The position numbers were made by a program, and so were the translations under genes. The notes beneath the pieces are model-generated. The model worked only from the letters and a program-made list of their open reading frames with translations, was not told the origin of the DNA and did no database searches. A stretch of 32,000 nt of DNA, taken from Candidatus Methanoperedens sp. (GTDB lineage Archaea; Halobacteriota; Methanosarcinia; Methanosarcinales; Methanoperedenaceae). Below, in pieces: positions 13,594 to 22,250 of the stretch (its first letter is position 1; every line of letters begins with the position of its first letter). Where the stretch lies: NCBI GenBank assembly GCA_027460535.1, contig JAPZAR010000027.1, forward strand, positions 30,001 through 62,000. The letters run 5' to 3'.

Positions 13594-13869
13594 TTATCCC
13601 CCGCTGACAGCGGGGAGGATTGATATCTCGTCCGCGCCTTTCACGGCGCTGTCAAGCCCTTTCAGGTGCCTTATATCCTCGCCGTTCACATACAGGTTGA
13701 CAAAGCGCCTTACTTCGCCTTTCTCAAGGATACGACGTTCAAAGTCCGGGCCGAATTGCTGAATAAGTTTATCCAGCACTGCTTTTACTGTCGTATCGCC
13801 TAAGTCAAGGATCGTTTCGCGGGCATGGGTCACATTGCTCAATGCAGAAGAAAATCTTATTTTTACCAT
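13594..13869 (-). CDS. MoaD/ThiS-family beta-grasp sulfur-carrier (ubiquitin-like) protein with C-terminal Gly-Gly
   Basis: 91 aa ending ...EISILPAVSGG directly before the stop. Size and pattern (VNGEDI...GADEISILP..GG) are typical of MoaD/ThiS/SAMP. It starts 9 nt downstream of the ThrC-family gene on the same strand. Confidence 0.8.
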   Translation of the reverse strand: MVKIRFSSALSNVTHARETILDLGDTTVKAVLDKLIQQFGPDFERRILEKGEVRRFVNLYVNGEDIRHLKGLDSAVKGADEISILPAVSGG

Positions 13870-13878
13870 TTTATCACC

Positions 13879-15153
13879 TTATGTATTAGCGATCGGTGCA
13901 ACCTCTCGCTGCTTGTGAATATCAAGTTTTGGCTCTGTGAGACGCTCAAACTCGCTCAGCATTGGTTTGATGACAGGGGGACGTTGCAGTGACTTGAGCA
14001 GGGTATCCTGCGCCTTAAGACCGTTCCCCGTGACGTATATCACGATCCGCTCATCGCGCTGTATGTGCCCGCTCTCAACCAGTTTCTTCAATCCCGCGAC
14101 AGTAGTGCCTCCCGCTGGTTCCGTGAATATTCCCTCCGTCCTAGCAAGTAGATGGATAGCATCAATGATCTCGGGGTCTGTCGGCGTGGCCGCATAACCT
14201 CCTGAATCCAGGATCGTCTTCTTGGCATAGTACCCGTCCGCCGGGTTGCCTATGGCAAGGCTGTGCGCCACTGTCTCGAAGTTCCTGACCGGGACAACCT
14301 CGCTGTTGTTTTGCACAGCGCATGATATGGGCGAACAGTTGAGGGGCTGCGAACCCGATATCCTGACATCCGCTTTCTCCACAAGACCCACACGTTCAAG
14401 TTCCTTGTATCCCCTGGAAATGGCGCACAGGAGCGCGCCGCTTGCCATCGGGGCTACGATGTGGTCAGGAACTTCCCATTTCAACTGCTCAGAAGTCTCA
14501 TAAGCGAGCGTCTTTGAACCTTCGGTATAATAAGGCCGGATATTGATATTCACAAAGGCCCAATCCGGATGGGAGTCCGCCACCTCGCTTGCGAGGCGAT
14601 TGGCATCATCGTACGTGCCTTCCACAGCGATCACCTTCGGGCCGTAGATGAGCATCTGTACTATCTTTCCTATTTCTATCGTGCTGGGGATGAAAATATA
14701 TGCCGGCAATCCGGCTTTCGCTGCATGGGCGCCCACTGCTGCCGCAAGGTTGCCAGTGCTTGCACACCCTACTGCTTTTACATCAAATTCGATCGCCTTT
14801 GAAATTGCAACCGATGTGACCCTGTCCTTGAATGAATTGGTAGGATTCACGGACTCGTCCAGGATATAGAGTTCTTCGAGTCCTAATACCGCTCCCAGGC
14901 GGTCTGCATGATGGAGAGTATTGAAACCGGCTCCGAGGTCGATGCGTTTTTCTGATTCGAGCGGGAGTAGGTCTGCGTATCTCCATATCGATTTTGGCCC
15001 CGCAGCTATCTTTTCTTTACTGATGTGGTCTGAAATATAATCCCAATCGTAATTGACTTCAAGAGGACCGAAGCATTCATAACATGTATTCTGGATAACA
15101 GCAGGGTACTCAGCACCGCATTCCCTGCATTTCAATCCTATAACGTGACTCAT
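13879..15153 (-). CDS. thrC: Threonine synthase family PLP enzyme with an N-terminal zinc ribbon
   Basis: N-terminal CRECG...CYEC ribbon, the PLP-lysine motif NPTNSFKDR, GCASTGN, and C-terminal EGIFTEPAGGTTVAGLKKL plus VTGNGLK. The symbol is tentative; see the finding on the MoaD pairing. Confidence 0.8.
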   Translation of the reverse strand: MSHVIGLKCRECGAEYPAVIQNTCYECFGPLEVNYDWDYISDHISKEKIAAGPKSIWRYADLLPLESEKRIDLGAGFNTLHHADRLGAVLGLEELYILDESVNPTNSFKDRVTSVAISKAIEFDVKAVGCASTGNLAAAVGAHAAKAGLPAYIFIPSTIEIGKIVQMLIYGPKVIAVEGTYDDANRLASEVADSHPDWAFVNINIRPYYTEGSKTLAYETSEQLKWEVPDHIVAPMASGALLCAISRGYKELERVGLVEKADVRISGSQPLNCSPISCAVQNNSEVVPVRNFETVAHSLAIGNPADGYYAKKTILDSGGYAATPTDPEIIDAIHLLARTEGIFTEPAGGTTVAGLKKLVESGHIQRDERIVIYVTGNGLKAQDTLLKSLQRPPVIKPMLSEFERLTEPKLDIHKQREVAPIANT

Positions 15154-15472
15154 CTAAAACTTCACCTGTCCATAATAGAACATTACCTTATATAATATTT
15201 ACCATTCATGTTGATAACTCAGAGTAATAAAAGACTGAATAGTTTGTTATAATTCTGAAGTTCCATTGCTATAGCGCCGAAAGCAAGCACAGTAACAGAA
15301 AAATTGGCGGGATAAAGCTCCCGCGATCGCCGGCGGAAGAACAAAGATTATACCAAGTATATTTCTTGCTTCCCAGAGACTCCCAATCTGCAAAGACACT
15401 CAGATTCCCTTTCTGAAATAATATCTTAGGGATCGGGTTACCTTTTCACATGTTTTCGATACTAAAGAGCAG

Positions 15473-15512
15473 AAAAAAAAGAATTCGGGGAGAGGTAAAA
15501 TCCTTCCCCGAA
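15473..15512 (-). terminator. Hairpin plus oligo-T terminator immediately after the multicopper oxidase stop codon
   Basis: On the minus strand TTCGGGGA (15512..15505) pairs with TCCCCGAA (15491..15484) across a 13-nt loop, followed by T8 (the complement of A8 at 15473-15480). It begins 16 nt after the TAG-TAA double stop. Confidence 0.5.
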
Positions 15513-15527
15513 TAACGGCATTTGTTA

Positions 15528-18500
15528 CTACCTCGTCGTAATTGCAGCCACGTTGGTGGACGTACTGGAACCGAAGATATTAGTTGCCAGGATACGGTAT
15601 GTGTAGGTTGTCCTGCGTTTCACACCGTCCTGACCTGTGGTGGGGTTCGTGTATGTCATGGGGCCAGTCCCCGGGTGGGCCGGCAAGGTTGCTACGTTAA
15701 TCCACGTAGTACCACCATTGGTTCTTCTCTGGACGATGAAGCTCGTCTCGGCATTGAAGTTGGGCGGATTGGAGACATTGGGGGAATTATCCGTCCAGTT
15801 GACAACGACGGGGGCGTTATTTGCAGGATTAGGCTGAGCTGCCGTCAGGCTCGATGGAGCCGCAGCCGGGGGGCCCACCGTGACACTATTGGAGGGTGCC
15901 GAGTTGACGGTATTGTTGGGATAGGCGCCCATATTGAGGATACCGACCACGTTGGAAGCCAGCACCTGGTAGTAGTAGCTGGTGTTGGCTGCAACCGTGC
16001 TGTCGTTAAATGCCAGGATCCCTCCGGTTGCCCTGTTCGGAACGCTCCCTGCAACCATGAAAGTCGTCAGTCCTGTCGTGAAGCCAGGATCCGTTGCCCT
16101 CTGGATAGTGAAGTTTATCTCGTCGACAGAGTTGTCTGTCCAGGTCAAATCCACTCTCAGCGGACCACTGAGCCCTGTGGCAATCAGGTTGGAAGGCGCA
16201 GCCGGTGGAACAGACACCACTACTGGTCGCATCATGTCGTTTTCTTCATGCCCAAGCAGGTGGCAGTGGTAGACATACTCCCAGCCGAAATTGACCAACT
16301 GATTGGTTATGACAGGAGTTACCGGGTTGCCGTTCGGGTCTACATTAGTAAATCCCGTCGTCGAACCTAGTGGACGCGTCACATCCATCGGTCGAATGCT
16401 GTTGGGAATCTTGAAGGGGAGGTTCGTGAGCTTAAGTGGCCTCAACGCCACGATGATGTCTTCCAGCGGGTTCATCCGCACAGTTTCCTTCCAGCCCAGC
16501 TCGTTGGGGTCTGGGGGCCTGATGGCACCGTCCCACCCGACCCGGTTTATCACCTGTACGTTGAACAGGTGGACATGGATGGCATGGGTATCAACGCCGT
16601 TGTGCGTGATCTTCCATATCTGGGTTCCATCGTTTAGAGACCCTATGGGAGTGCCAATGTCCGTTATGTTTATAAGTTCCACGGGTGGATCGATGTATGC
16701 CTGGATGATGGATGTCTGCCCAACATTGTTAGTATGCCTTATTTCGTTACCAAGGATGGCATTCATCCGACCATAGTCAGTTGTGAAGTCCTCGATGATG
16801 GCCTTTGGCTCCATTTCCATCCTGATAGCGCCTGTTGGGCCGATTGGGTCGAAGGTGAAATTGGTGTCCTGGATTTTCACATACGCACTTGCATTGCCAG
16901 GGAAACCTGGAGCAGGCGGGTTGTAGACGCTATTGTAAGGAGCCTGAGGCACGAGAATGGTGTCTTGGGACGCATTAAACACAGCAGGTAACGCTGTTTG
17001 CAAGGCCGTCAAAATGGTTGCGTTGACATCGTCGACGGGCGCGGACGAATCAGGTCCTGCACCTACATGGATTTGCATGATGGTGCGGGTGTTGGGACCG
17101 TAGCCTGCCAGGGTCGATGGTGCACCGCCAGAACTGGTCTGGTCTGAGTCATTCGTATAGTAGTCAAGACGGGGATCAGCAGCCGGAACAGGCGCGGGCG
17201 AGTCGCTATAGAGGATCAGGGTCTTTCCTGCGAACCTGGAGAAGTCAACAATGACATCCGCCCTCTCAGCCGGTCCGAGGAAGAGTGCCTTCTCTTTGAC
17301 ATTCCCTACGGTTATGTCTCTGCGGTTGTAGACGTAGTTGATCGGCTGGTTTTTTACCACCATTGGAGCAGGCATGAATCCGCCCTCGGTGCCGATTTGG
17401 ATCATTGCTGGGCCCCTGGTGTTCGGATCCGGGACGCCACCCTCACGGTCATCGAAGGTAAAGCCACCTGGTATAATGGTATACCACCAGGTAGGGAAGG
17501 GAGTGATCAAGTTCTGGTTCGAGTTGAAAGGAACCATCTTGACTTCGGTATTCTTCCGACCATCTACGGTGGTCACATTCGGGTCGGCAACATACAGCTG
17601 CAGGTTCCAGAACCGGTCGTCAGCTGCGTTAAGTATGCGGAAGCGAACAGGTCCTGCTGGCACGTTGAGGACCGGGTAGGCTTTGCCGTTGACAAGCGGG
17701 GTGTCCATGAACGCTTCAGGCACGCCGGACGGCGAAATCAACCGCGCATCTGGCGTCCCGGGGATCTCAGGCCCCTCGCAATACTGCGTGGCGCTGGAAA
17801 CGCAACTGGCATTGAAGTTGGGGTTCGGGATCGGCCCGAATTGTAAGCCTGTAAACGGCGGCCAGAACCACGGGCCGTAATCCCATCTGCCCATTGGGTT
17901 AGCTCCTGTTAGGTCCCCCGGGTTCTGGTTGGGCATGTAGACGTGGGGATACCAGAGCTGGCCATAGCCTCCCCACTTCGTCGAATTCCATGTAGGATCC
18001 TGAGCCATCAGTTGCGAGGCAAAGGTGCCCATCTGGTTCGTGAATGGTGTGGTGTTGTCGGGCACGAATGTCTTGTCCTGGATGACAAGGGGAATTCCGA
18101 CGCCCGGGAGTACTGCTGCATTCAAAGGATTTGCTCCCGCTATGTTGGTACCATTGATCAAATCTTGCTCGAACTGGTCTGTCAACAGGTAGCCTGATGC
18201 CTCACCGGCATAGACATTTAGACGGGTGATCCCGTAGGCATGGTCGTGATAGAACATCAGCCTGGCGCTCTGCTGGTTGGTATAGTAAAAGGTCAGCGAG
18301 CCAGCGCCGGGATCGGGCATGTCAGGGACGTTGGACACACTCACACCTTCAGGGTAATCGGTAATCTCTCCAGCAGGAGTAGTCCACTGATGGGGGGTCC
18401 CGTCACTGATCCATGGAGTGGTTCCACCGTGAAGATGCAGGGTGGCTCGGTTCTCAGAGTAACAGGTTGTAGGCTTTGGCGTCGCCGAACAATCCGTACT

Positions 18501-19760
18501 CATAGTAGCATTGGGACCATCCCCCGCCCCCATATAAGTTGTGTCCACCGGAAGGAAGAGGTCGCCTCCGGCACCTGTGGGAAGCTTGTTGGTGAACTTG
18601 ACGCGAACTGGCTTGTCACGCGTGGCGATGATCACGGGCCCAAGATAACTGATAGGTGCGACGTCCACCCCATTCATTACCTGCACATATCCCCTCAGTT
18701 TTGTCGGGGGAAGGTCTGAATGCATTTCCTGGGTGTACTCTCTTAGCTCAATTTCATAGCAATCAGCCGGCTGGCTGGAATATGTGCAGGGAGTCGGAGT
18801 GGCAATTGTTAGACTCGGTAATGGATTGATGAATTTCCTTATACCCCCGGAAATGACAGTGACCGCTATGGAGTAGGTTCGATCGGTGCTGAACATCGGG
18901 TAATTGACATCCCCAAGGTTGATTATAGAACCATTTATAGGGGCCGCAGCAGCCGGATAAAGTAAGGTGTCATTTCCCACTCCGCCTGGCGTAGCTGGAA
19001 TGTCGACGGCAATCCCTTGCCCGTAATGGGCAATCAGGTCGCCTGCTTGAACGGTGGTTGGCGTTACTGTAAAAGTCTGTACTTGTCCAATCGTTACAGA
19101 TGGTACTGTCAACGGTCCGCTATCAAAAATTACTGTATATTGGTTCGGAACACCTGTGGGCTGCAACACGTAGGCATTAAATGTATTTGGCCCTGATCCC
19201 GGCTGATTATATGTCTGGAATGATGAGAGTGTCCCATTTGACAGCGGGGCATGGGTATTGACAACGAATACGTTCGCCGCATTGTCTGTGGGAATCGCCC
19301 GCCCGATCAACGGATTCCCGATTGTGGTTACTGCCGGAAGCGGGCTGTTGGCATAGTTAGGCCAAATGCCGAAATAGTCAGGTGTAGTACCCGGCCCGGG
19401 TTGTGCGATGGCTGCGATTCCAACCGCTGCAGGTGCAATCGTTGCGGGTCCAACCGCTGCTTTCCCCTTCTTTCCAAGAGATTTTTTCAACTTTTCTGCT
19501 GCAGCCTTCCTCTTGGCAAGCATATCTATCATCATTTCTCGTCTTTTCAGCGGATCAATTTTATTCAGAGTATCCTTTGCAGCATTTGCACCCAGAGTCT
19601 GGCTGTCCACTGTGGTGACATTGCCAGTGTCTGATGTGTGGCTGCTCGGAACGGCAGCACTGCTGTTCAACATAAATAATGTCAATCCAGCAGTAAGCAA
19701 CATTAATACAATGCTTGCATATATTGTTCTTTTTAATTTATGTTCATTATTATTTACCAT
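15528..19760 (-). CDS. Giant secreted three-domain-type multicopper oxidase (CotA/bilirubin-oxidase-like, heavily expanded) with an N-terminal signal anchor and two C-terminal fibronectin type III-like domains
   Basis: 1410 aa. All four MCO copper motifs were located in frame: HLH (18429-18437, ATLHLHGG), HDH (18240-18248, FYHDHAYG), HAIHVH (16569-16586) and HCHLLGHEENDM (16233-16268, i.e. HCH-x3-H-x4-M). An IRKFINPLP motif marks the MCO core start. The last 226 aa (15531-16208) form two FN3-like repeats (LTWTDNS..FTIQR..YYYQVLASN and VNWTDNS..FIVQRR..YTYRILATN). The N-terminal hydrophobic helix has no twin-arginine. About 20 N-x-S/T sequons. An AAGGAG RBS lies upstream. Confidence 0.85.
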   Translation of the reverse strand: MVNNNEHKLKRTIYASIVLMLLTAGLTLFMLNSSAAVPSSHTSDTGNVTTVDSQTLGANAAKDTLNKIDPLKRREMMIDMLAKRKAAAEKLKKSLGKKGKAAVGPATIAPAAVGIAAIAQPGPGTTPDYFGIWPNYANSPLPAVTTIGNPLIGRAIPTDNAANVFVVNTHAPLSNGTLSSFQTYNQPGSGPNTFNAYVLQPTGVPNQYTVIFDSGPLTVPSVTIGQVQTFTVTPTTVQAGDLIAHYGQGIAVDIPATPGGVGNDTLLYPAAAAPINGSIINLGDVNYPMFSTDRTYSIAVTVISGGIRKFINPLPSLTIATPTPCTYSSQPADCYEIELREYTQEMHSDLPPTKLRGYVQVMNGVDVAPISYLGPVIIATRDKPVRVKFTNKLPTGAGGDLFLPVDTTYMGAGDGPNATMSTDCSATPKPTTCYSENRATLHLHGGTTPWISDGTPHQWTTPAGEITDYPEGVSVSNVPDMPDPGAGSLTFYYTNQQSARLMFYHDHAYGITRLNVYAGEASGYLLTDQFEQDLINGTNIAGANPLNAAVLPGVGIPLVIQDKTFVPDNTTPFTNQMGTFASQLMAQDPTWNSTKWGGYGQLWYPHVYMPNQNPGDLTGANPMGRWDYGPWFWPPFTGLQFGPIPNPNFNASCVSSATQYCEGPEIPGTPDARLISPSGVPEAFMDTPLVNGKAYPVLNVPAGPVRFRILNAADDRFWNLQLYVADPNVTTVDGRKNTEVKMVPFNSNQNLITPFPTWWYTIIPGGFTFDDREGGVPDPNTRGPAMIQIGTEGGFMPAPMVVKNQPINYVYNRRDITVGNVKEKALFLGPAERADVIVDFSRFAGKTLILYSDSPAPVPAADPRLDYYTNDSDQTSSGGAPSTLAGYGPNTRTIMQIHVGAGPDSSAPVDDVNATILTALQTALPAVFNASQDTILVPQAPYNSVYNPPAPGFPGNASAYVKIQDTNFTFDPIGPTGAIRMEMEPKAIIEDFTTDYGRMNAILGNEIRHTNNVGQTSIIQAYIDPPVELINITDIGTPIGSLNDGTQIWKITHNGVDTHAIHVHLFNVQVINRVGWDGAIRPPDPNELGWKETVRMNPLEDIIVALRPLKLTNLPFKIPNSIRPMDVTRPLGSTTGFTNVDPNGNPVTPVITNQLVNFGWEYVYHCHLLGHEENDMMRPVVVSVPPAAPSNLIATGLSGPLRVDLTWTDNSVDEINFTIQRATDPGFTTGLTTFMVAGSVPNRATGGILAFNDSTVAANTSYYYQVLASNVVGILNMGAYPNNTVNSAPSNSVTVGPPAAAPSSLTAAQPNPANNAPVVVNWTDNSPNVSNPPNFNAETSFIVQRRTNGGTTWINVATLPAHPGTGPMTYTNPTTGQDGVKRRTTYTYRILATNIFGSSTSTNVAAITTR

Positions 19761-19972
19761 ATATTTTTCTCCTTTTTTCGCGTTCTTTATTTCACTCCTT
19801 ATTTTGCTTTTTTGCGGAGATTAAACCTCGAAGCGATTTATATCTCCGCTTATTATTTCTATTAAATTTTATATGGACAGATATCCTATCATTTTGTCAT
19901 TTATCCCCCCAAAAGCATCCCGCTTTTAAAAAATATTAGAATTAATTCCTTAAAAAGGATTAAGATTTAATT

Positions 19973-20051
19973 GCATATATCAAAAGCATATATCAAAAGC
20001 ATATATCAAAAGCATATATCAAAAGCATATGTTAAAAAGCACATGTCAAAA
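19973..20051. repeat. 13-bp tandem direct repeat array: 4 perfect plus 2 degenerate copies
   Basis: GCATATATCAAAA occurs at 19973-85, 19986-98, 19999-20011 and 20012-24. It is followed by GCATATGTTAAAAA (20025-38) and GCACATGTCAAAA (20039-51). The array lies 213-291 nt upstream of the MCO start codon. Confidence 0.95.
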
Positions 20052-20653
20052 GCACTTGCCGGCTTTATATGGCGGCAGACGTGCATCAATCTAATCTTTT
20101 TGTCCCAAAGCCCTTGGACAATATTTTCTCACAAATAATTCTGAATTTGGATTTTCAGCGGATAAGAGGTTGCTTAGATGGACGGTGGGACAAAAAAGGG
20201 ATGATAGAATTGGAACTGCTCTATTTTGCGCTGGCGTCTGTCTAAATTTATACTCGACTTAATTCTGTCCCACAGCCTGAGACATGTGACCATTACATTA
20301 CGTTTGACACGATCAAACTAACCGCGGATTAGCGTACTATAAACACTTTCGGTCAACATTAGCTTTATAGTGAGGGGTTGCGACCCCATAGTCCTGAGGA
20401 AGCGCCGCAGCTTGCGGGATTTAACATGAAATCACCGGTTGCATATTTTCAGAAGTCAACGAAAATTACAGATTGATCGAAATCCTCTCTTATATTCAAC
20501 TTATAAAAATAATGTGGCCTGTCTCATGCAGACCAACTGATAAGCAGAAAAATGAACATGACCACGAGATATGAGCCAAGTATCTCATCTGCAGGATTAG
20601 TTATTGGCACATTTAGTATTATAACACTACCTCATTCCCTCAGATAAATGCAT

Positions 20654-21448
20654 TCAGATCATTTGCATATCAAAAACATACCTGTTCACCCGCGGTGCCA
20701 CTCCCCCGCAATTTCGATAAGACCTGACCCTCCATCCTTTTTCTTCCAGCAATCTCTTAAAATGAGCAATTTCAAAATCTTTTTTAAATGTATAGAAATG
20801 GATAGTTCCTTCTGGTTTCAATATAAAGCGTGCAAGACTCAGGAAATAATCCTGCCCGTATGGAGTCGGCATCACGATCCTGTCAAAATCCTTTCTGAAG
20901 ATAAGATTAATCGAGTTCGCATCACCCAGAATGATATCAGCATCGACCTTATTCAACTCTGTATTTTTCTTGCAGAAAGTGCATGCAAGGGGATTATTCT
21001 CAATCCCGATTATATTGACATTCCTTGTTTTCGCGATGGGTATCAAAAATGGCCCTGCGCCGCAGAATAATACGAGAACGTCCTCGCCGTTTCTCACCAG
21101 TTCCGCTATCCTTTTCCGCTCAAAGTACATTTTGCCTGAAAAATAGGTTCTGGCTATGTCCACATGGAAATCGCACCCATTCTCCCTGTGTACCGTGGTT
21201 GTCCTGTCCCCTAACAGTATCTCGAAATCCCCAACGCGCTTCGTACCATGGAGTTTGTTCGTTTTTCGAAGAACCACCATAACACCCCTCCTGTGTGAGA
21301 CGAGGGCCTGCGCAATGAGATGCTTTTCATCTTCAAGCTGTAGCGGGATATTGATAATGGCGATATCCCCTATGACCTCAAAGCCTTTCGGGAGAAGAGA
21401 AAGTTTTTTCTCAGGAAGTTTATCTTTCAGAATATCTCTGAGGGACAT
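20654..21448 (-). CDS. trm5: tRNA (guanine37-N1)-methyltransferase Trm5 / Taw22-type (Met-10+ family class I SAM methyltransferase)
   Basis: The LPKGFEVIGDIAIINIP N-terminal domain, DVLVLFCGAGPF SAM motif and GIENNP catalytic NPP-like motif are typical of archaeal Trm5. Confidence 0.75.
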   Translation of the reverse strand: MSLRDILKDKLPEKKLSLLPKGFEVIGDIAIINIPLQLEDEKHLIAQALVSHRRGVMVVLRKTNKLHGTKRVGDFEILLGDRTTTVHRENGCDFHVDIARTYFSGKMYFERKRIAELVRNGEDVLVLFCGAGPFLIPIAKTRNVNIIGIENNPLACTFCKKNTELNKVDADIILGDANSINLIFRKDFDRIVMPTPYGQDYFLSLARFILKPEGTIHFYTFKKDFEIAHFKRLLEEKGWRVRSYRNCGGVAPRVNRYVFDMQMI

Positions 21449-21455
21449 GTTCTTG

Positions 21456-22250
21456 TTAGCGCATTAACGCGCTTGCGAGCATAATGGCCCTCGCAGCATC
21501 CTCTTTGACCCTTGAGGTGTCCACGAAAACCTTTTCCATCAGCACAGGCGCTCCATACCCATGGCCTCCACCCAGGAACACAAGGGTCCTGAAAATAAGA
21601 TTGCCTGAGATCCCATCCGGTGCGATGATGAAATTCGCCTCTTTTACGGCATCTTCTATCAGTATAGAATAATTTTTTGCATCTATCCCCAGCTCGCAAA
21701 CTTTTTTTGTTACGATCTCTGCATCAACAAGCGTCATATCCACCCGCTCATCCCTGCCTTTATCCTCAAAGCGCCCGCCTGAGAGGATGCCCACTTTTGC
21801 TTCTATATCCAGTCGTCCAATATGCTCAACACCTTTTCTTATCAATTCGATCTTACTCGCTACCGTATTTCCCTCGTCGATGCCTACTGGCGCAAGGAAG
21901 AAAGGTCTCCCATCTGCTGTTTCCAGCAAAGCGATCCTGAATAATCTGGTCGTCCCGAGTGAGATTTTCAATGCGGATAGAGTTTTTGTGGCACTCAGCG
22001 TACCCCTCACAGCGCCATCTATTTCTCCGGAATCCAGCAACTCTATGAGCGTTCGAGAAGGTTCCAACGAGTGGATTATTTCAAGCCTGCTTGGCCTGAT
22101 GTGCTCCTTGTCGCCCACGAGCACAACATCTGCATACTCAGCCGCACTCTCAGCGTTCTTGATGAGTTTTTCTGAATTTTTCCCGATCCCGACACCTATT
22201 CTTGCATGGTTATGCCTTGCTTTTTTCTCTATCTCGATAAGGAAATTCAT
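21456..22250 (-). CDS. MtxX-like protein (methanogenesis marker 4; phosphotransacylase-like fold); tentative
   Basis: 264 aa. The general pattern (IGVGIG..., [30 protein letters not shown]) matches my memory of the MtxX/PTA-PTB-like family. Not verified. It lies 7 nt upstream of trm5 on the same strand. Confidence 0.4.

Follow-up and report, generated by a model that had tools for sequence, protein, structure and literature searches.

A giant CotA-like multicopper oxidase in Candidatus Methanoperedens: membership in a widespread bacterial and archaeal family and possible roles at the cell surface

Introduction

Why would an archaeon that is regarded as an anaerobe encode a giant, apparently exported enzyme with the full set of copper sites used for O2 reduction? 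This question is raised by the gene of a predicted multicopper oxidase (MCO) in Candidatus Methanoperedens sp. (GenBank assembly GCA_027460535.1), which lies in a 32,000-nucleotide stretch of contig JAPZAR010000027.1 (positions 30,001 to 62,000) that was analysed as a whole and is called the window below. Methanoperedens is of key importance as a filter for methane at oxic-anoxic interfaces and at those rich in metals. A preliminary description of the window, made from the DNA alone, had assigned the gene to an archaeon of the anaerobic methanotrophic (ANME) type, which is correct, and had implied that such an enzyme is a rarity in this setting, which is not supported: the window MCO is an archaeal addition to a known and very widespread family of giant MCOs, and not a new kind of system.

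This family has more than 5,000 members, and its substrate and mechanism have never been established since MofA and OmpB were described; the interest of the archaeal gene lies in the role of the family in anaerobes. A conserved, exported O2-reducing copper enzyme that carries binding modules suggests that 'strict anaerobes' may manage O2 or reduced metals at their surface. The other possibility is that mineral respiration involves copper proteins, a role that has been put forward for Geobacter OmpB. A 2017 review (PMC5244752) had already pointed to MCO domains in ANME-2d genomes, and our literature search found no paper that analyses the giant MCO copies of Methanoperedens. The gene and its catalytic core are located as follows.

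15528..19760, minus strand: gene of the giant three-domain MCO, a complete open reading frame (ORF) of 1,410 amino acids with an ATG start
16206..18845, minus strand: CotA-like three-cupredoxin MCO core, residues 306-1185, recognised by phmmer, Foldseek, Pfam and invariant ligands

Results and discussion

A complete set of copper sites in a CotA-like core

The 1,410-residue ORF is intact, as originally reported. Its product is 100% identical to the NCBI entry 'MAG: hypothetical protein O8C66_12365 [Candidatus Methanoperedens sp.]', and the gene recurs with its surroundings in three independent assemblies (NCBI, ENA and Logan), so that an assembly artefact is excluded. By phmmer comparison with the PDB, residues 308-1185 align with residues 4-511 of CotA (E 4e-32), and every copper ligand of the window MCO pairs with a CotA ligand. 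The four copper motifs that had been read from the sequence are thereby borne out: H442-L-H444, H505-D-H507, H1059-x2-H1062-x-H1064, and H1165-C1166-H1167-x3-H1171-x4-M1176. The type 1 (T1) copper ligands are H1059, C1166, H1171 and the axial M1176, and all eight histidines of the trinuclear cluster are present. In addition, D453 and E1172 align with D116 and E498 of CotA, the acidic residues that deliver protons for O2 reduction. All ligands, as well as D453 and E1172, are invariant in an alignment of 40 family members.

Of the Pfam families named in the preliminary description, PF07731 scored 33.1 bits (cut-off 20.4); PF07732, PF00394 and PF00041 were not detected by Pfam in the window MCO. 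The fold assignment is supported by an AlphaFold2 model of residues 120-1195 (pTM 0.79). A Foldseek search with the core model retrieved CotA, bilirubin oxidase and PhsA (phenoxazinone synthase) at E about 1e-28, with target-normalised TM scores of 0.71-0.75 and the whole target covered. Among solved structures, the closest by both sequence and fold are Bacillus subtilis CotA, the Bacillus bilirubin oxidases and Streptomyces PhsA, which share the same ligands, the axial methionine and the equivalents of D116 and E498. There is one set of copper motifs and one three-domain CotA-like core, and no six-domain layout of the MnxG type. As judged by these comparisons, the window MCO is a three-domain MCO of the CotA/bilirubin oxidase clade with a predicted complete set of copper sites.

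Identity to CotA is only about 20%. CotA has 513 residues, whereas the window MCO is close to three times that size, as had been noted, and adds a leader, a jelly-roll domain, two FN3-like modules and about 430 residues in four inserts (534-663, 723-819, 867-1021 and 1101-1146, or about 130, 97, 155 and 46 residues). These inserts are conserved in sequence and nearly universal among family members (occupancy 0.79-0.97), and they are therefore a hallmark of the family and not a quirk of this gene.

Breadth of the family and origin of the Methanoperedens genes

The protein search recovered more than 5,000 homologues of the window MCO, mostly of 1,200-2,000 residues, with variable C-termini that carry FN3, Ig, Big_7, CBM4_9 or choice-of-anchor modules. 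A relative is encoded in at least 589 GTDB species genomes, and the best 80 of these loci, which were retained, cover more than twelve phyla of bacteria as well as several lineages of archaea. The bacterial hosts include Geobacter and other Geobacteraceae and Desulfuromonadales, Geomesophilobacter, Desulfobulbus, Desulfarculales, Clostridium malenominatum, Neobacillus, Methylococcaceae, Nitrospirae, Chloroflexi, Acidobacteria, Actinobacteria and Planctomycetota. Archaeal members were found in Methanoperedens BLZ2, Methanomassiliicoccales, Methanospirillum, Methanoregula, Methanotrichaceae and Bathyarchaeota. Many of the hosts are strict anaerobes, and at least five archaeal lineages besides Methanoperedens are represented. 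The window MCO is 64-76% identical to bacterial members over 800 well-aligned columns of the core, and the archaeal copies are compact single-gene targets for biochemistry.

In a neighbour-joining tree the family falls into two major clades, both with a bootstrap value of 100%. The window MCO and five other sequences of the Methanoperedens type form a clade (type A; 100% bootstrap) that is nested among bacterial sequences in a group supported at 82%. A second type of Methanoperedens paralogue (type B) groups with sequences from methanogens and bacteria in the other major clade. Because the fully supported type-A clade nests among bacterial sequences, the Methanoperedens lineage appears to have received this giant MCO from bacteria and to have kept it under purifying selection; the monophyly of type A indicates that the gene has since been inherited within the lineage. 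Methanoperedens has at least two deep types of giant MCO paralogues, as seen from P0008, P0016, P0072 and P0103 and from a BLZ2 gene (locus L009, 5533-10515), whose product ends instead in an Ig domain followed by two CBM_4_9 domains.

Insertion between trm5 and thrC relative to two related contigs, and selection on the gene

About 30 Methanoperedens-like loci were found by scanning metagenomes with ThrC. In two of the related contigs (L099 and L101; ThrC 91-92% identical) the order of P5C reductase, a 264-residue ORF, Trm5 and ThrC is kept, and the gap between Trm5 and ThrC is about 101 nucleotides. The DNA of these contigs aligns to the two flanks, at window positions 20899-20665 and 15230-15002 (the site lies at L099 1421-1523 and L101 4642-4744), and the intervening segment is therefore an insertion in the present genome or else a deletion in its relatives.

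15231..20664, minus strand: 5.43-kb segment with the upstream region, the MCO gene and its terminator, absent between trm5 and thrC in L099 and L101

The junctions of the segment show no terminal repeats, target-site duplication, similarity between flanks or mobile-element hallmarks. The closest orthologues occupy other sites, as read from loci L167, L168 and L004: P0002 and P0003 lie upstream of a beta-CASP/Trm56 block, and P0004 lies between a helix-turn-helix gene and Sua5.

A recent, decaying transfer had been named as one of the findings that would undo a functional reading. Relatives do lack the segment, its orthologues sit at other genomic sites, and the GC content of the MCO gene (0.53) is the highest in the window. 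All the same, the idea of a recently transferred, non-functional or decaying gene is scarcely credible. The 4.2-kb ORF is intact with all catalytic residues kept, and among the Methanoperedens type-A orthologues the core has a dN/dS of 0.11-0.15 at a dS of about 0.7-0.85 (about 0.8 between orthologues); such strong purifying selection marks the gene as long established and not decaying. A foreign composition was also considered and found to be weak, since the GC3 of the gene (0.59) is inside the range of its neighbours (0.38-0.63), and the monophyletic type-A clade likewise speaks for inheritance within the lineage. The MCO gene is real and probably functional.

Export signal, signature motif and accessory modules

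The regions outside the core are listed below in the order of the protein.

19662..19760, minus strand: export signal or signal anchor, residues 1-33, with K8, K10 and R11 ahead of a hydrophobic stretch of 20 residues (12-31) and then NSS-AAV
19386..19661, minus strand: low-complexity, lysine-rich linker, residues 34-125, containing the helix motif 'KRKAAAEKLK'
19338..19385, minus strand: family signature motif PDYFGIWPNYANSPLP (PDYFG...PNYANSPLP), residues 126-141, with occupancy 0.92 and identity 0.66 in 110 members
18846..19337, minus strand: optional beta jelly-roll of the carbohydrate-binding module (CBM) or lectin-like kind, residues about 142-305, modelled with AlphaFold2
15876..16205, minus strand: FN3-like module 1, residues 1186-1295, assigned by a 32-module family profile
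15531..15875, minus strand: FN3-like module 2, residues 1296-1410, with an inserted 'SPNVSNPPNFNAE' loop, assigned by the same profile

The N-terminal signal or anchor lacks a twin arginine, in agreement with the preliminary description. By Kyte-Doolittle hydropathy, 19-residue windows above 1.5 start at residues 11-19 only, apart from a single weak window, rich in Ala/Pro, at 101; a C-terminal anchor is absent. This style of leader is common to Methanoperedens paralogues of both types. A search with residues 1-128 against 1.84 billion representatives (50% representative level) returned a single match of 95 residues and hence gives no evidence for a shared anchoring module. The linker showed no homologues at this level and is weakly constrained (dN/dS 0.5-0.8), and the GC content over the first 100 codons is 0.40.

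The N-terminal region of about 300 residues, previously taken as a single region of unknown fold, is indeed present and resolves into leader and linker (1-125), the signature motif and the jelly-roll. The motif itself, which had been noticed in the window MCO, is family-wide. For the jelly-roll, AlphaFold2 gives an all-beta model with a pLDDT of 89.4 and a pTM of 0.83. Its best Foldseek match in the PDB reaches only E 1.6e-3 with TM scores of at most 0.47, and the remote likenesses are to phage tail and capsid jelly-rolls, CBM6, PHR and the lectin-like domain of Cwp84. Many homologues lack this domain or have another element in its place (occupancy 0.42).

Two further sequence elements were observed in this part of the family. 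A T-x-A-(E/D)-R-x-A-A-A motif stands 20-50 residues ahead of PDYFG in bacterial and archaeal members (P0010, P0025, P0041, P0046, P0050, P0068 and P0110) and at about residues 80-95 of the window MCO (about 19476-19523); it may serve as a propeptide, docking helix or sorting signal. Long arrays of a 'GGSGYTSAPxVTI' repeat, to which Pfam assigns no family, occur in many homologues (P0004, P0006, P0018, P0037, P0050, P0055, P0068 and P0072), where they stand in for the jelly-roll or sit inside cupredoxin domain 2.

The two C-terminal FN3 modules proposed earlier are recovered at the level of the family, and neither is recognised singly as FN3 by Pfam. A profile built from 32 modules, including both of the window MCO, matches solved FN3 domains (titin, FN3con and PTPRF) with E values of 1e-48 to 1e-12; 22 of these 32 modules match PF00041 individually, the two window modules not being among them. 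The C-terminus of the window MCO alone gave nothing significant against Pfam or the PDB, and a VirB10 match to it (E 0.009) is spurious. A near-identical FN3 pair is present on the type-B Methanoperedens-like paralogues P0008 and P0072, and its occurrence on both paralogue types points to module exchange within the Methanoperedens lineage.

Three cysteine pairs fit an extracellular protein. The number of N-x-S/T sequons, estimated before at about 20, is 23, as compared with 15.7 expected from composition; the density of 16.3 per 1000 residues is nevertheless not distinctive when set against 10.4 +/- 4.4 in bacterial homologues, and we discarded an N-glycosylation adaptation because the value is inside the bacterial range.

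Relation to MofA, OmpB and other described oxidases

Leptothrix discophora MofA, which has homologues in Fe/Mn-oxidising bacteria, and Geobacter OmpB and OmpC have been described as large extracellular MCOs with FN3 domains, OmpB being a MofA homologue (PMC5566968). Like MofA, the window MCO is predicted to be a secreted three-domain MCO of more than 1,100 residues with FN3 or Ig modules at its C-terminus. Members of its family also occupy operons with a secreted FKBP and a cytochrome c with a periplasmic-binding domain, resembling mofA-mofB-mofC. In Methylococcaceae locus L075 the MCO gene is followed by one for FKBP_N and FKBP_C domains and then by one for Cytochrom_C and Peripla_BP_6 domains, an order that matches the published description of mofABC and so links the family to MofA. 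A similar arrangement, with FKBP and cytochrome c near the MCO, is seen in L033, and an FKBP gene adjoins the MCO gene in L055 and L070; the loci with this adjacency include one of Geobacteraceae and one of Nitrospirae. The window MCO is 45% identical to the L075 protein over 1181 positions and 48% identical to the FKBP-adjoined Geobacteraceae MCO over about 1100-1180 positions. From the operon architecture, the Geobacteraceae members and the literature, the window MCO can be classified as a putative giant MCO of the MofA/OmpB type. It differs from MofA, which we compared by its description, in that the Methanoperedens gene is solitary, has a leader of archaeal-lineage style and belongs to an anaerobic archaeal host.

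The likeness to OmpB (GSU1394) and OmpC extends to lifestyle, both being large extracellular MCOs with FN3 domains of a strict anaerobe that respires insoluble metals, and members from Geobacter, Geobacteraceae, Geomesophilobacter and Desulfuromonadales are 48-50% identical to the window protein. In contrast to the window MCO, OmpB is secreted via an atypical type II system across the Gram-negative outer membrane, and its gene cluster contains a MofC-like cytochrome and an SCO1/SenC chaperone, neither of which is found at the window locus (PMC5566968). Sequences of G. sulfurreducens and Leptothrix are not present among the listed protein matches or the 80 genome loci kept. 'Geobacter sp. UBA698' (L031) was rejected as a stand-in for OmpB, as its MCO clusters with Chloroflexi-like sequences and is without mofBC neighbours, the only genes nearby encoding a PEP-CTERM protein and a di-haem peroxidase.

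A type-B Methanoperedens MCO gene in L005 has two unannotated ORFs (80 and 377 residues) and a gene for an FKBP26-type peptidyl-prolyl isomerase downstream (14719-16808). The latter was dismissed as a mofB counterpart, being a cytosolic chaperone of the FKBP26 type; it has no signal peptide, for which reason the adjacency is probably coincidental.

Other exported archaeal MCOs are more distant. Haloferax volcanii LccA and Pyrobaculum aerophilum McoP have about 500-580 residues and no accessory domains, and export of LccA is dependent on the twin-arginine (Tat) pathway. The window MCO belongs to a separate lineage of far larger proteins that also has bacterial members. McoP has been characterised as a metallo-oxidase (PMC11111587).

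Proposed function and alternative explanations

We favour, with moderate confidence, a role of the window MCO as a surface oxidase that consumes O2 and takes electrons from reduced metals, cytochromes or humics, a reading best supported because the whole O2-reducing apparatus is invariant in the family. The protein would be exported by Sec, loaded with copper outside the cell, and held at the envelope by an uncleaved anchor or by the binding modules. The T1 copper would take single electrons from an extracellular donor, most likely Fe(II) or Mn(II), reduced surface cytochromes, or humic and phenolic compounds, and pass them over the His-Cys-His bridge to the trinuclear cluster for the four-electron reduction of O2 to water. 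At oxic-anoxic interfaces such an enzyme would clear O2 from the cell surface and could also regenerate oxidised metal phases. The options offered in the preliminary description (O2 scavenging, a metal oxidase, or an envelope-associated redox protein) appear reasonable as candidate roles.

Several observations weigh against this proposal. Since the host is considered an anaerobe, O2 may seldom be available to it, and the reported phenotype of Geobacter OmpB is the reduction of Fe(III) oxides and not an oxidation (PMC5566968). The putative placement in the MofA/OmpB type draws on operon architecture, Geobacteraceae members and published descriptions, and no mofB-like, mofC-like or SCO1/SenC genes are next to the window MCO. 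Finally, pLDDT falls to 35-70 at the HLH and HDH motifs of domain 1, and at this confidence the AlphaFold2 model neither confirms nor denies the geometry of the copper sites.

With its O2-reducing site intact in hosts such as methanogens, ANME archaea, Geobacter, sulfate reducers and clostridia, the giant family may work under anoxia, either as a copper-based protein for extracellular electron transfer or mineral contact or with another oxidant, for instance N2O. We regard this as unlikely, although, if true, the Methanoperedens MCOs would be part of a route for methane-derived electrons to Fe/Mn oxides and a second, non-haem class of surface redox proteins in anaerobic methanotrophs. Applied to the window MCO itself, the scheme proposed for OmpB and OmpC would make it an anaerobic component of extracellular metal-oxide respiration for which O2 is not the physiological substrate, a surface copper protein that passes methane-derived electrons to Fe(III)/Mn(IV) minerals or aids attachment. 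Geobacteraceae and Desulfuromonadales do belong to the family, Methanoperedens performs metal-dependent extracellular electron transfer (PMC10542353), and modules that may bind minerals or polymers (jelly-roll and FN3, or CBM4_9 in the BLZ2 paralogue) suit surface contact. We nevertheless consider this role improbable as well: a simple electron relay would have no need of eight invariant trinuclear-cluster histidines and a D/E proton relay, no multihaem cytochrome genes lie near the window MCO, and the mechanism of OmpB was itself never established (PMC5566968). EXXE motifs, which have been reported for OmpB as Fe(III)-binding, number two in the window MCO (338-341 and 662-665) against about 0.75 expected from composition, and E338 is not conserved in the family consensus. 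Far less probable is that the trinuclear cluster uses N2O or another nitrogen oxide instead of O2 and ties the enzyme to nitrate reduction as practised by Methanoperedens. Nitrous oxide reductase activity has been reported for P. aerophilum McoP (Fernandes et al. 2010, as cited in PMC11111587), and the giant family is widespread in strict anaerobes; against this, nothing in the sequence sets it apart from O2-reducing MCOs, many hosts are aerobes or non-denitrifiers (Neobacillus, Methylococcaceae), and the window MCO has no nitrogen-oxide gene context.

The remaining alternatives concern the electron donor. A laccase- or bilirubin-oxidase-like activity on phenolics, humics or pigments, or in cross-linking of the envelope or extracellular polymeric substances with the modules targeting polysaccharide or matrix, would agree with the nearest solved or curated relatives (CotA, bilirubin oxidases and the o-aminophenol oxidase PhsA) and with the resemblance of the jelly-roll to CBM6-type modules. 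The CBM_4_9, Ig, Big_7 and choice-of-anchor domains of the paralogues are likewise reminiscent of secreted polymer-active enzymes, and family members are plentiful among Chloroflexi, Acidobacteria and Actinobacteria of soils and sediments. This explanation is again an outside possibility, given that the NCBIfam PhsA match reaches 112.9 bits against a family cut-off of 950, that the substrate pocket is unreadable in the low-confidence model, and that those giant-family members which have been described are linked to metals and not to phenolics (PMC5566968). Copper detoxification by a cuprous oxidase of the CueO type is very doubtful. It would draw on weak and partial NCBIfam matches to CueO (E 3e-11, 42.7 bits against a cut-off of 525) and FtsP (E 6e-7, below cut-off) and on the hyperthermophilic archaeal MCOs, which are efficient cuprous and ferrous oxidases (PMC11111587). 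Yet no 30-residue window of the protein holds five or more methionines, as would a methionine-rich segment; the Tat signal is missing; the architecture is three times larger and includes adhesion modules; and, as had been remarked at the outset, no copper chaperone or transporter gene (copA, cusF or other cop and cus genes included) is found in the window.

The only expression record that the literature search turned up comes from the published BLZ2 transcriptome, where a 'putative multicopper oxidase MmcO' is expressed at 22/42/134 transcripts per million (PMC13079737, Supplementary Dataset 9, PADDDONK_00162-00182). Its gene is beside those of an S-layer-domain protein and two MtrC/MtrF-like multihaem cytochromes, and the cluster is bracketed by iron permease genes. 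MmcO may or may not be one of the giant MCOs; its cluster suggests that some MCO of Methanoperedens may have a Fet3/Ftr1-like or electron-transfer connection.

Locus and neighbouring genes

The solitary position of the gene and the lengths of its non-coding spacers (about 350 and 890 nucleotides in the preliminary description) are in accord with our measurements of 374 and 893 nucleotides, and neither spacer contains a credible ORF. Rfam gave no matches in the window or the spacers. Two elements accompany the gene.

15472..15512, minus strand: terminator-like hairpin (TTCGGGGA...TCCCCGAA) followed by a T-run, 16 nucleotides past the MCO stop codon, read from the sequence
19761..20664, minus strand: non-coding upstream region carried with the MCO gene, containing a Shine-Dalgarno GGAG, AT-rich promoter-like sequence and 13-nucleotide tandem repeats

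The Shine-Dalgarno GGAG is at 19769-19772, 8 nucleotides 5' of the ATG. The tandem repeat (GCATATATCAAAA) occupies 19973-20054, about 210-295 nucleotides upstream of the MCO start, with 6.2 copies according to TRF; its exact 13-nucleotide unit occurs 4 times as compared with 0.07 expected. The number of units varies by assembly, from at least 5 in L001 (893-nucleotide spacer) to 3 in L002 (867-nucleotide spacer), and the array may be a variable promoter element.

The neighbours of the MCO gene in the window are archaeal housekeeping genes, namely thrC and those for ThiS, Trm5/TYW2, P5C reductase, TFIIE-alpha, aTrm56, a beta-CASP RNase, TiaS and a homocitrate/isopropylmalate synthase. The thrC-like gene (13879-15153, minus strand) encodes a pyridoxal phosphate enzyme that bears an N-terminal cysteine-rich, zinc-ribbon-like segment (CRECG...CYEC). 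Next to it comes a 91-residue ThiS/MoaD-like ORF (13594-13869, minus strand), which is annotated in L001, and this pair suggests a sulfur-carrier-linked ThrC-like enzyme, and not a plain threonine synthase. On the other side of the MCO gene, the 264-residue ORF at 21456-22250 (minus strand) has no Pfam match; it is syntenic with the Trm5 and P5C reductase genes in related Methanoperedens contigs, and its counterparts in L099 and L101 are 72-76% identical.

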